In this document: piece after piece, positions 12,462-61,823 of the stretch
How the letters are laid out: each line of letters begins with the position of its first letter
Numbering within the stretch: the first letter of the stretch is position 1
Source: a virus
Taxonomy: Duplodnaviria > Caudoviricetes
DNA length: 64,000 nucleotides
Strand: one strand, 5' to 3'
IMG/VR virus record: IMGVR_UViG_3300021167_000382
Location: 64,001 to 128,000 of that record
Translations under genes and position numbers: made by a program
Notes under the pieces: model-generated
Database searches by the model: none
The model's input: the letters and a program-made list of their open reading frames with translations, nothing else
Told to the model about the DNA's origin: nothing

Positions 12462-13445
12462 TTAGATGACTAAGAAATCATCCGTAGGGTTCCGATCCAC
12501 TACAACTGCTTTAACCGTTGCAGGTTTGCGGTGTTTCGAAACCTCATCTTCCAGACTCTGAAGCGTGTCTGGAAAGATCCCTTGCCGGGTTACCAGATGC
12601 ACCGGCGTGGCCAGCTGAAGACGTCCAGCGACCTTTTCATTCAGCTCACCGTAGCTATGGTACGGAACCATAATACCCGGTGAGTGATCTTCATCGGCCT
12701 TAACGATCGTCACCACCGTAGAAACCGGGCAGTGGTCATTAGCCAGAACCGCCTTCACGCCGGAAGTCAGTTCCAGTGCTACGATACCTGGTGCGTAATC
12801 ACTAACCTTATTGTAATTCAGGAAGTTTTCCAGATCCATGCGATCCAGGCCTTTGTTTTCACCAGACCAAACCGCAGACAGGAAGAGCACCATGATACGA
12901 GCAAGGGTATCGACATCGGCCAGCGTCGGATATTGCGAGTTATCCAGGTAATAGCAAGGCACTGGACGATCGAATGCCTCAGCCAGTTTCTGATACGTCA
13001 TGATGGTGTCACGAACGTTATCAGCTTCCTTGATACTGGTTCGAGAACCCACCATCACTACAACGACGTTCTTCCCACGGGCCATGAGGTCTTTGGTCAG
13101 AATATTACCGATCAGAGAGCCCGACCCACCAGACCCAGAATGCACCACGATACTCAGATCACCCGGTTCCCAGCGACTCACGATATCCGTCACGGCCTGG
13201 CGAGCGTGTTCCACATTCGTGGCACGGATCTTACCAGAGCCGTCGACCAGGTTATGGCGGCTTCCGATGTGGATGAACGAAGATTCGAAGCCTGCATCCG
13301 GCAGATTACTGTGACTGGTATCGATCATACCAAAAGTCAAGTCAGCGTAGCCTTTAACATCCTTAGCCGCCACCTGCATCAACGGCATCACGATGTTGAT
13401 ACCGCAACCACCAACCGCATAAACCGTTACTCGGTTATTTTTCAA
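12462..13445 (-). CDS. phuZ: Tubulin-like spindle protein PhuZ
   Basis: VYAVGGCGINI, IDTS, GSGKIR and the tubulin signature SGSGGSGSLIG; C-terminal DDFLVI; TTG start with AGGAG. Confidence 0.93.
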   Translation of the reverse strand: MKNNRVTVYAVGGCGINIVMPLMQVAAKDVKGYADLTFGMIDTSHSNLPDAGFESSFIHIGSRHNLVDGSGKIRATNVEHARQAVTDIVSRWEPGDLSIVVHSGSGGSGSLIGNILTKDLMARGKNVVVVMVGSRTSIKEADNVRDTIMTYQKLAEAFDRPVPCYYLDNSQYPTLADVDTLARIMVLFLSAVWSGENKGLDRMDLENFLNYNKVSDYAPGIVALELTSGVKAVLANDHCPVSTVVTIVKADEDHSPGIMVPYHSYGELNEKVAGRLQLATPVHLVTRQGIFPDTLQSLEDEVSKHRKPATVKAVVVDRNPTDDFLVI

Positions 13446-13459
13446 AGCAATTCTCCTAA

Positions 13460-14299
13460 TTAATCAGAGGGTAAAGAAACCAGATGCTCAGATTCAATTT
13501 CATTCTGAGCGATATGCGACTGAACACGAACTTCCCGAGCACGAAGGAGTCTATCCAACGTGATCTTACGTAAAGTCATGCTCTGTATTTCAAGATCACT
13601 ATTCTGCTGACCACGCCGAGCACCTGAGGTAGCTAGGTATCTACGACGGTTGGATTTGAGTTCTCGATCGATCGTCAATATCCGATCACACCATGCGGAC
13701 AGAACCTCGTCCTGGTTCGTATTCTGGTTATATCGAACCGATTCATGGAGTGTGTAAAGCCAGTAAGAGCCATCGTCCATACGTTTGAATAAGTGCACAT
13801 GTGCTTTATTGGAGATGGGGAAACGAGACGACTTTAAATAGAGTTCAAGTTCTGGGCAGTGGAGCATTTTAAATTTGTTTTCGGTATACTCAACTGCGGT
13901 GCTGTCGATAATATAAAAGCGCTGTGGATCTTGGTGTTTCTGGAACTGAGGTCGATTGATCCGTTTCTGACGAAAGTCATTCCACTCGCTCAGCCAACTT
14001 ACTAGAATACCCTTCAATATTCCAGGCGTCAACAACCCTTCCTCAAATGGAGGATAGTTGGATTCATTCATGAACTTCAAAGTCTCACGTTCAAGTTCCT
14101 TCAACGTGAAAGTCTTTGCTCGTGCTAAATCATCCGCATAGTACTTTGTTAGCATGAGTAGATGGTTGGCAATCATCCGTGCCATGCTAAAGAAACGTTC
14201 CAATGCAGCGATTTGTATCGAGTCCATTTCCAAACGTATCGCTCGATAGTGGACATGGAGAAAGACCTTCTCCTTATCCATGTTAGATGTTTCCATCAT
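13460..14299 (-). CDS. TnpB (IS605 OrfB)-derived protein lacking the RuvC nuclease domain
   Basis: RAIRLEMDSIQIAALERFFSMARMIANHLL aligns by eye to TnpB RLYPN..Q..L...LG.ARFVYNH.L. RPQFQK matches FPRFRK, and KRMDDGSYWLYTLHE matches RRxxxGxYxxSVLCE. No GxDxG, no E/D catalytic motifs and no Zn finger. Confidence 0.72.
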   Translation of the reverse strand: MMETSNMDKEKVFLHVHYRAIRLEMDSIQIAALERFFSMARMIANHLLMLTKYYADDLARAKTFTLKELERETLKFMNESNYPPFEEGLLTPGILKGILVSWLSEWNDFRQKRINRPQFQKHQDPQRFYIIDSTAVEYTENKFKMLHCPELELYLKSSRFPISNKAHVHLFKRMDDGSYWLYTLHESVRYNQNTNQDEVLSAWCDRILTIDRELKSNRRRYLATSGARRGQQNSDLEIQSMTLRKITLDRLLRAREVRVQSHIAQNEIESEHLVSLPSD

Positions 14300-14400
14300 C
14301 AATATCCTTTCAACTTGTATTCGTGTTCATTTCAAATAACTCATCGTTCACGGTTAATCTATCTAAGAAGATAGCAGAGATCGCTACCCATCGGTTCATG

Positions 14401-14420
14401 TAAGATATACATGACTTCAT
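14401..14420 (-). promoter_or_regulatory. Putative early promoter, copy 3 (TnpB-like/phuZ operon)
   Basis: Core ATATACATG at 14405-14413. Confidence 0.7.
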
Positions 14421-14503
14421 TATCAGTAGTCACAGGAATACCATTACCCACTAGGTAAGTAACTTAAACAAAAGAACCCTACCAATGTATCGACAATTAC
14501 TTA

Positions 14504-14904
14504 GCAGACTTCTTCTCTACCGGACTAGCAGTTTCGATAAGAAACTGCCGAGGTGGAGGAGAAGGGTGCGATGCTGCCGACACATGCTACGTGCTACACC
14601 TACTTAGAAATATTTTCATTCTACTATCTCTCTATCTATTGGCTCGTGATGATTTAAAAATTTACGAGCTTTCGAGAAGTCGACTGAACGGAGTGAAGGA
14701 GCGGATCGAAAGCGAGCTTCCCTACCTCAGTGACATGGACACAACGCCGAAGGCTGTGTGGACAGGACACTCTAACTTCCCGCAACGCGGGGGGCGAAGC
14801 CCAACAACATTTTTTAATATTTCGAATATCATATTTACAGACGTTCGCATCATGTGACGGATAGGCTTTGATGGCCTATCCGTCACAGGCAGCATCCGTC
14901 ACAT
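14504..14904 (+). ncRNA. Candidate structured ncRNA (alternatively a hairpin-rich ssDNA or origin element)
   Basis: At least six stems with G-T wobbles that pair only on the + strand, in the longest gene-free gap of the window. Confidence 0.45.
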
Positions 14905-15017
14905 TGCGTATTAATAAAACCCATTTCATTCGGGAAGTAAAAATAATAATAATCAAAAGGAGAATCTCTTTGCTGGTAGATCCTCTGGTATAACAATCAT
15001 AGTAAAAAGGATGCATC

Positions 15018-61068: not shown

Positions 61069-61102
61069 CATGAGAAGAGAGGCGTACGCCTCTCTTCTCA
61101 TG
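61069..61102. terminator. 34-bp perfect palindrome / bidirectional terminator
   Basis: CATGAGAAGAGAGGCGTACGCCTCTCTTCTCATG between convergent genes. Confidence 0.78.
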
Positions 61103-61823
61103 CATCAACGTTTATTTCCTGCTTAGCCTTAACCATACGTTCAATATTGACACAGAATGTCGTCACCGGGTAGAGCGTCAACTTGATAAACATTGAGCTA
61201 TACTGTTCGATGATGGGGTATATGTCAACTGTCTTAACCTGTTCCCAGGCAGTCTTTGAACGAACAATCGCAGGACCAATGAGTGTTATCTCAGGGCAGA
61301 ACGTTGATTCGAAGTTTCTATTGGCAGCATGAATCTCAAGCCAATTCCAATACTCGTACATCACCAGCATCGCATATGTTTTCTTAACGTAGCTAGGGGT
61401 GATCTGTTCTAAAGGTGTATCGATGATCTCAATATCGATCAACCCTTTGGTAACTAACTTTACTCCTTCCACGACTGCTAAGATAGCTTCTTCTGGAAGA
61501 ACATACGGGTAGATGTTCAGATGTAATCTGGGTTGCTTGACAAACGGCGTACTGGCTCGAGCTTTCAGCGTCTGTTCAGCGAAATAAAGAATGATCCGTG
61601 GAACATCAGTTACTGATGAATGATGAATCGTGGATGCGTCCCTTTGCTGATAAGCTTTATGATAGGTCTCAACATCATAGCCATCGAACTCATCGTAGTC
61701 TCGGCTAAAGTAACCATTCTTCAATAAGCCAGCGACACGCTGGCTATCGAGTTTGTACAGTGTAGATAGTCGTGTGTCGAATAACGAATCGAGATCGACG
61801 TAGATAGTGGAGAAGTCTTCCAT
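61098..61823 (-). CDS. Conserved core protein (HAD-like YVDLDSLFDT start)
   Basis: 241 aa; DxD motif at the N-terminus. Confidence 0.62.
   Translation of the reverse strand: MEDFSTIYVDLDSLFDTRLSTLYKLDSQRVAGLLKNGYFSRDYDEFDGYDVETYHKAYQQRDASTIHHSSVTDVPRIILYFAEQTLKARASTPFVKQPRLHLNIYPYVLPEEAILAVVEGVKLVTKGLIDIEIIDTPLEQITPSYVKKTYAMLVMYEYWNWLEIHAANRNFESTFCPEITLIGPAIVRSKTAWEQVKTVDIYPIIEQYSSMFIKLTLYPVTTFCVNIERMVKAKQEINVDA

Follow-up and report, generated by a model that had tools for sequence, protein, structure and literature searches.

Judged by family profiles and a predicted structure, P0001, a 279-aa protein of a nucleus-forming phage, is a derivative of TnpB that has neither the RuvC core nor the zinc finger. 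An IS605-type tnpB gene was gained once by the ancestor of one uncultured clade of chimalliviruses and lost its RuvC core and zinc finger, and the P0001 lineage has since been passed on by vertical descent and maintained by strong purifying selection, as the first gene of the phuZ operon or close to it.

The DNA analyzed here (the window) is a stretch of 64,000 nucleotides from a phage genome of 210,129 bp. This genome encodes chimallin (PDB 7sqt, E value of 3e-21; PHROG 4795, 5e-58), PhuZ, a divergent phiKZ-type DNA polymerase, and terminase and therefore contains the marker set of the Chimalliviridae. The P0001 open reading frame lies on the minus strand at positions 13460 to 14299, starting with an ATG at 14299 (a second, in-frame ATG follows at 14296) and ending with a TAA codon at 13462 to 13460. 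It is preceded by a ribosome binding site, AAGGA, at 14309 to 14305 of the same strand. Exactly 14 bp separate its stop codon from the TTG start, at 13445, of the phuZ tubulin gene, the next gene in the operon (12462 to 13445, minus strand; PHROG 4733, 4e-62), which has its own AGGAG inside this gap. The ribosome binding site and the 14-bp spacing had been pointed out in a preliminary description of the sequence, and both are confirmed. The same description had reported neither a tnpA gene nor IS ends, and indeed no tnpA was found among the open reading frames neighboring P0001; rather than the mobility features of IS605, the locus has a fixed synteny and a gene tree congruent with that of the phages. 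A genome-wide search found no full-length TnpB encoded in this phage.

The recognition lobe and the missing nuclease region

The link between P0001 and TnpB becomes firm only when the 28 homologs of P0001 are added in a family profile, whereas P0001 alone gives weak matches. With the single sequence, searches of Pfam, NCBIfam, the PDB, and GenBank phages returned no match; the PHROG 506 transposase family was matched with an E value of 5e-4 (reaching 6e-18 with a homolog), and comparison with Atlas TnpB clusters gave TM scores of 0.53 to 0.56. Pfam HTH_OrfB_IS605 is matched by 14 of the 29 family members. The family HMM matches ISDra2 TnpB in the PDB (8h1j, 0.004) over TnpB residues 9 to 174, and in HHalign comparisons with four intact phage TnpBs, the match is 98.3% with an E value of 1.9e-14 and is limited to P0001 residues 22 to 187. 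Foldseek likewise ranked 8h1j first (9e-9). A single-chain AlphaFold model was predicted from the deep alignment (pLDDT of 92; pTM of 0.87). In VIA comparisons, this model aligned with four ISDra2 TnpB entries over 160 to 171 residues (Z scores of 13.8 to 14.2; root mean square deviations of 3.1 to 3.5 Å) and with Fanzor2 at a Z score of 14.4, and the list of matches was filled by TnpB and Cas12 structures. By these profile and structure matches, the WED+REC recognition lobe comprises residues ~13 to 189 (13733 to 14263, minus strand). The preliminary description, which had assigned the first ~190 aa to the WED/REC region of TnpB and had named profile and structure comparisons as the means of checking this, was correct on this point.

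The match with TnpB stops at the last WED strand, which is where the WED domain of ISDra2 ends. In ISDra2 TnpB, the WED domain ends at residue 176 and RuvC begins at residue 185 (PMC10097598). Beyond residue 189 of P0001, the model contains no RuvC sheet and only two helices; CxxC, as expected of a CCCC-type TNB zinc finger, is absent in all 29 family members, and a loose RuvC-I-like pattern occurred in only 1 of the 29 sequences scanned. The absence of RuvC motifs and of the zinc finger, as claimed earlier for P0001 itself, agrees with these results. In place of RuvC and TNB, the family alignment and the model have a short linker and then a basic C-terminal hairpin of two helices (residues 198 to 274; 13478 to 13708, minus strand), predicted at residues 198 to 221 and 227 to 274. 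The hairpin has a median charge of +6, with conserved lysine or arginine at positions 244, 245, 250, 253, and 255. A resemblance to the TnpB bridge helix had been suggested for this part. The lobe is indeed followed by basic helices, but a descent from the bridge-helix region (RuvC alpha1/alpha2), which binds the omegaRNA in TnpB, is no more than a possibility: a sub-threshold HMM segment is colinear with ISDra2 residues 220 to 264, the helices score above composition shuffles against the bridge-helix region of only one of four TnpBs, and they do not superpose as a unit on the TnpB bridge helices, the aligner adding few residues past the lobe.

Residues R41, N45, W106, Q126, L184, and R244 are invariant in the family, the last sitting in an RK-x2-L-x-R-LL-R motif of the C-terminal hairpin, and P117, F119, Y179, and E186 are nearly so. 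The TnpB core motifs R-x3-N and P-x-F are kept, with R41/N45 corresponding to R29/N33 and P117/F119 to P107/F109 of ISDra2 in an HMM alignment of ~17% identity, in which the correspondence could be shifted by several residues. The TAM is read in ISDra2 at K76, F77, Q80, T123, and N124 (PMC10097598). These positions align roughly to P92, G93, K96, D132, and S133 of P0001 and are not kept as such; D132 is a conserved aspartate in the family. The TAM-reading positions of ISDra2 differ in TldR too (bioRxiv 10.1101/2023.11.30.569447; PMC13622181). The net charge of residues 13 to 190 is about +3 in P0001 (family median, about +2) versus +15 to +23 in the N-terminal lobes of four phage TnpBs. In both TnpB and TldR, the heteroduplex is capped by aromatic residues of the RuvC region (PMC10097598; PMC13622181), a region that is gone from P0001 together with these aromatics. 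The loss of charge fits a lost RNA-DNA heteroduplex channel and could equally reflect weak binding of nucleic acids or a role as a protein scaffold. Taken together, the charge loss, the changed TAM positions, and the missing RuvC aromatics would speak against a canonical R-loop and favor a simpler mode of binding.

Homologs, selection, and genomic neighborhood

Loci of relatives were gathered with the 404-aa neighboring gene as the anchor; IMG/VR pattern scans with the P0001 gene or phuZ matched nothing. The 28 homologs have intact open reading frames of 225 to 280 aa and share 16 to 90% identity. The dN/dS ratio, taken from two independent unsaturated pairs after many saturated pairs were left out, is 0.083 (about 0.05 to 0.13) for P0001 and 0.095 for phuZ. 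In a phage tree built from the 404-aa gene by a quick IQ-TREE run, ten carriers fall within one group of twelve that has 100% support, consistent with one gain and one loss (L027/L029), and the gene tree of the P0001 family repeats the same nesting (Mantel r of 0.65, P of 0.0005). Wherever enough DNA is available, synteny is preserved: a divergent block of terminase, ~140-aa, 404-aa, and ~200-aa genes is followed by a non-coding gap and then by the P0001 family gene, which leads the phuZ operon or lies close to its start. The survey of homologs with dN/dS that had been suggested earlier thus places the family far from decay, and domestication by a nucleus-forming phage, which the preliminary description had proposed, is borne out by the low dN/dS, the vertical descent, and the chimallin encoded in the genome.

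The family had no match in the whole genomes of the cultured phages RP12, FLC9, Goslar, RAY, and AgentSmith, using a query that matched other genomes in separate searches, and was also not detected in G003 and G004, metagenomic relatives that are more distant and of roughly full length. The gene is therefore accessory and specific to a clade, and does not belong to the chimallivirus core. The 404-aa chimallivirus gene was also seen on contigs of 144 and 286 kb (L105 and L106) in isolate assemblies of Caballeronia arationis and Paraburkholderia sp. BCC1886, the former contig also carrying phuZ; these contigs are possible carrier-state or prophage-like chimalliviruses.

In the window, as in about six other loci (L001, L003 to L007, and L016), the P0001 family gene immediately precedes phuZ. 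In L019, L020, and L026, the P0001 homolog and phuZ are not adjacent, being separated by a gene for a 348-aa, a 383-aa, or some other protein. Among relatives that lack the gene, the position before phuZ is occupied by an open reading frame resembling lysozyme or SLT by eye, by a small open reading frame, or by nothing; in L030, L034, and L036 to L038, the occupant is 156 to 190 aa long and has, again by eye, the look of a lytic transglycosylase or lysozyme. The genes before phuZ of PhiPA3 had no match to the P0001 family. The place before phuZ appears to be an exchangeable slot served by a strong promoter, rather than half of an obligate pair. In one further locus (L088), phuZ is in two pieces.

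A second RuvC-less protein with a TnpB WED+REC lobe, of 211 aa, is encoded outside the window on the minus strand of the same genome (G000:C1:25057-25692, equivalent to L113:1558-2193), as the last gene of an operon that is followed by a terminator-like hairpin. Its Atlas model matches TnpB with a TM score of 0.67, and it is kept in relatives at 62 to 83%; the ortholog in the relative G001 (2e-18) itself matches the phage TnpB profile (1.6e-4). Since this protein lacks the C-terminal hairpin and has no direct similarity to the P0001 family by HHalign (0.2%), it probably represents a separate capture of TnpB. Full-length TnpBs of 382 to 450 aa are frequent in the lineage (L019:3443-4795, minus strand; L025:13171-14394; L110; L111; and G001) and are a plausible source of P0001. 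G001 encodes five intact TnpBs beside both RuvC-less derivatives, and single ones are found in L019, L025, G002, and G005; the L019 copy lies within the conserved hairpin region that precedes the P0001 homolog. Other mobile insertions near the block include an intein-like Hint domain in the terminases of L007 and L025 and an RRXRR-HNH open reading frame at L019:1-882.

The upstream region and the search for a guide RNA

A 19-bp motif at 14396 to 14414 (minus strand) upstream of P0001 is, by its distribution, a phage promoter. Its 26 genomic copies are confined to the minus strand, and most of them stand 43 to 125 nt before open reading frames, including that of chimallin; those in the window are at 1856, 6378, 14413, 22882, 32324, 33492, 37353, and 60527. 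In other genomes, 15 of 16 copies (G001) and 8 of 8 copies (G003) lie on one strand. The motif differs from the phiKZ motif TATATTAC. One copy elsewhere in the genome stands before a 1.6-kb gap that is free of open reading frames (G000:C1:192179-193772). The copy upstream of P0001 had been called an early promoter. The promoter-like motif itself stands, and its timing is probably early, of the virion RNA polymerase type, given the genes that the motif precedes and the fact that early transcription in this phage family is driven by the virion RNA polymerase (PMC13282480).

The 718-nt region upstream of the gene (14300 to 15017) is structured (z of -3.9), with folds in the upstream region that exceed those of shuffled sequences by z scores of -2.1 to -6.7. 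Alignment of relatives delimits a conserved non-coding core at 14658 to 14802 (plus strand), made up of purine-rich mini-hairpin motifs and hairpin A (14792 to 14802). Within it, positions 14777 to 14658 are 88 to 97% identical to the nearest relative versus 60 to 75% in the least conserved upstream stretches. The loops of hairpin A on the plus strand are GAA, GGA, GTGA, GAGA, and GTTA and are always closed by C-G (C-GNA-G or C-GNNA-G), a pattern that fits stable DNA mini-hairpins better than RNA. The window and L003 to L008, L020, L026, L027, L029, and L036 to L038 all carry the conserved non-coding region, with the terminase block on one side and the phuZ operon on the other; of these, L027, L029, and L036 to L038 have hairpin A and the mini-hairpin motifs and no P0001 gene at the locus. 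Since it is shared with these gene-less relatives, the region would be older than the P0001 gene, and it is a candidate replication origin or control element. A long inverted repeat at 14846 to 14893 is common to the window and L003, and a similar hairpin occupies the same position in L019, L026, and L027.

Hairpin B, at 14509 to 14564, has a covarying stem, 7 of its 19 pairs showing compensatory changes, and a purine-rich internal loop. Folding modestly favors the plus strand, with -15.4 kcal/mol as opposed to -10.9 for the minus strand. It could be aligned in six close carriers, and look-alikes were noticed by eye in another two; the carriers L019, L020, and L026 did not show it.

A 3' omegaRNA of the IS605 type has no room in the 14 bp before phuZ. 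The upstream region matched no Rfam family, and apart from the promoter it had no exact match of at least 15 nt in the rest of the genome, a length below which short guides would escape. BLASTN between this genome and G001, which has low sensitivity at this distance, found only promoters, terminators, and group I introns as shared non-coding sequence. The stretches resembling group I introns are similar to one another (61088 to 61505 and 170869 to 172185 of G000:C1; about 109200 to 110400 of G001). The upstream region as a whole was rejected as a guide for P0001, given that hairpin A and the mini-hairpins occur in the gene-less relatives, and hairpin B is the only remaining candidate for a partner element. 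Of the RNA-guided regulator envisaged in the preliminary description, the TnpB recognition fold is present, but no gene-specific guide RNA was found and the positive charge of the REC lobe is mostly lost.

Possible functions and comparison with known systems

We tentatively propose, at somewhat less than even odds, that P0001 is a nucleic acid binder that acts on the phage's own DNA or RNA independently of a guide. The protein would be made early, would be unable to cleave, and would work without a dedicated guide RNA. Its WED/REC cleft, which in TnpB holds the TAM duplex, would grip a short duplex or a junction of duplex and single strand, with the conserved arginines of the C-terminal hairpin supplying contacts to the backbone. 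The most plausible site would be structured phage DNA, for example, the hairpin-rich non-coding region upstream (the candidate origin or control region), and the role would be an accessory one in early genome handling or gene control; we infer both target and role. The hairpins beside the gene may also do no more than mark the landing site of an IS, since the hairpin region predates the gene and L019 carries a full-length tnpB in the same region.

It is unlikely, though conceivable, that P0001 is instead a minimal RNA-guided, non-cutting DNA binder resembling TldR, which would use a phage RNA (a plus-strand transcript of hairpin B or an RNA acting in trans) to repress or mark a fixed target. 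The predicted fold preserves the lobe that binds the TAM and RNA, and in TnpB the omegaRNA is held on a surface made up of the WED domain and two basic helices (PMC10097598); the covariation of hairpin B, its better folding on the plus strand, and the structure of the upstream region would suit such an RNA. Yet three carriers show no hairpin B, the remainder of the region is also found in phages without the gene, and neither an Rfam family, a genomic target of at least 15 nt, nor a trans element shared with G001 came to light; the depleted charge of the lobe and the missing capping aromatics also speak against this reading. A more specific version, in which a binder of ~260 aa without a RuvC fold loads a phage RNA (possibly an opposite-strand hairpin B transcript) on its WED+REC lobe and two basic helices and targets DNA in the EPI vesicle or nucleus, perhaps together with the second lobe, appears decidedly improbable. 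An RNA-guided P0001, if it proved to be one, would make a programmable DNA binder of very small size.

Equally doubtful to us is a decoy or dominant-negative role, in which P0001 would sequester omegaRNA or crRNA or occupy the TAM or PAM and so blunt the TnpBs of coinfecting phages or a host type V system. Intact TnpBs are numerous in relatives, and the promoter context fits early expression; however, the phage under study retains both RuvC-less derivatives while having no full-length TnpB, the family evolves slowly and vertically, which is less typical of arms-race proteins, and the model does not place the C-terminal helices in the pose with which TnpB binds RNA. Phage DNA, moreover, is already protected against nucleases by the nucleus and the EPI vesicle (PMC13282480). 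The preliminary description had also offered a tether to the spindle or nucleus, and a TubR-like adaptor connecting the PhuZ spindle with the nucleus or with phage DNA would be suggested by the position directly before phuZ and by a gene order that recalls tubC-tubR-tubZ loci. Such an adaptor is very unlikely and the tether unsupported, as adjacency to phuZ is broken in L019, L020, and L026, the slot holds unrelated genes or nothing in relatives, and neither the five cultured phages, which have PhuZ, nor the PhiPA3 genes before phuZ gave a match to P0001. A predicted complex of P0001 and PhuZ scored 0.00 ("no answer") and weighs neither way. Truncated TnpB-like clusters of 170 to 260 aa are common in bacteria, and L019 has taken up an intact tnpB in the same region, but a functionless, decaying IS605 remnant is ruled out for practical purposes by a dN/dS of 0.08, by open reading frames that stay intact and similar in length even at 16% identity, by the fixed synteny, and by the congruence of the gene tree. 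Whatever probability these readings leave falls to roles that do not involve nucleic acids.

That the recognition lobe outlasted the RuvC core on two occasions in a single phage lineage, in P0001 under selection as strong as that on the phage tubulin, suggests that the lobe is useful by itself, apart from cutting and perhaps from guides. P0001 is small and looks soluble; it offers a handle on what WED/REC does alone and is a candidate early factor of nucleus-forming phages. To our knowledge, the described domestications of TnpB (Cas12, TldR, dCas12f-sigma, and Fanzor) retain at least a damaged RuvC and a guide RNA. No published RuvC-less TnpB of chimalliviruses was found in the literature searched, the coverage of which was incomplete.

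The TnpBs of IS200/IS605 elements (ISDra2; PDB 8H1J, 8EXA, 8EX9, and 8BF8) share the WED+REC lobe and core motifs with P0001 but have a RuvC sheet, a catalytic D-E-D triad, and a zinc finger, none of which is present in P0001. They are also mobile and have a 3' omegaRNA, whereas P0001 has no 3' space for one and no tnpA, is immobile and vertically inherited, and has a far less basic lobe. TubR of type III TubZRC partition systems resembles the P0001 locus in gene order alone (structured DNA, small binder, tubulin). TubR is a winged-helix protein of partition loci ordered tubC-tubR-tubZ; the fold of P0001 differs, its linkage to phuZ is not strict, and most PhuZ phages examined do not have the gene. 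In dCas12f, sigma-TnpB, and other exapted TnpBs (PMC10691335; PDB 9N9C), an inactive lobe is reused without cutting, as it would be in P0001, and the P0001 model matches structure 9N9C with a Z score of 10.6. The exapted TnpBs described in PMC10691335 owe their inactivity to catalytic substitutions or to truncation of the C terminus, and they come with guide RNAs or arrays and partner genes; unlike dCas12f and sigma-TnpB, P0001 has no linked sigma factor or array. TldR, some examples of which are prophage borne, is like P0001 a domesticated, nuclease-dead derivative of TnpB in a fixed gene neighborhood (bioRxiv 10.1101/2023.11.30.569447; PMC13622181). Because TldR retains a degenerate RuvC and an adjacent guide RNA, whereas P0001 has had its RuvC core deleted and the search for a guide found none, P0001 is not a TldR by membership, nor is it a TnpB nuclease; it is a further case of the exaptation of TnpB, a known kind of event.
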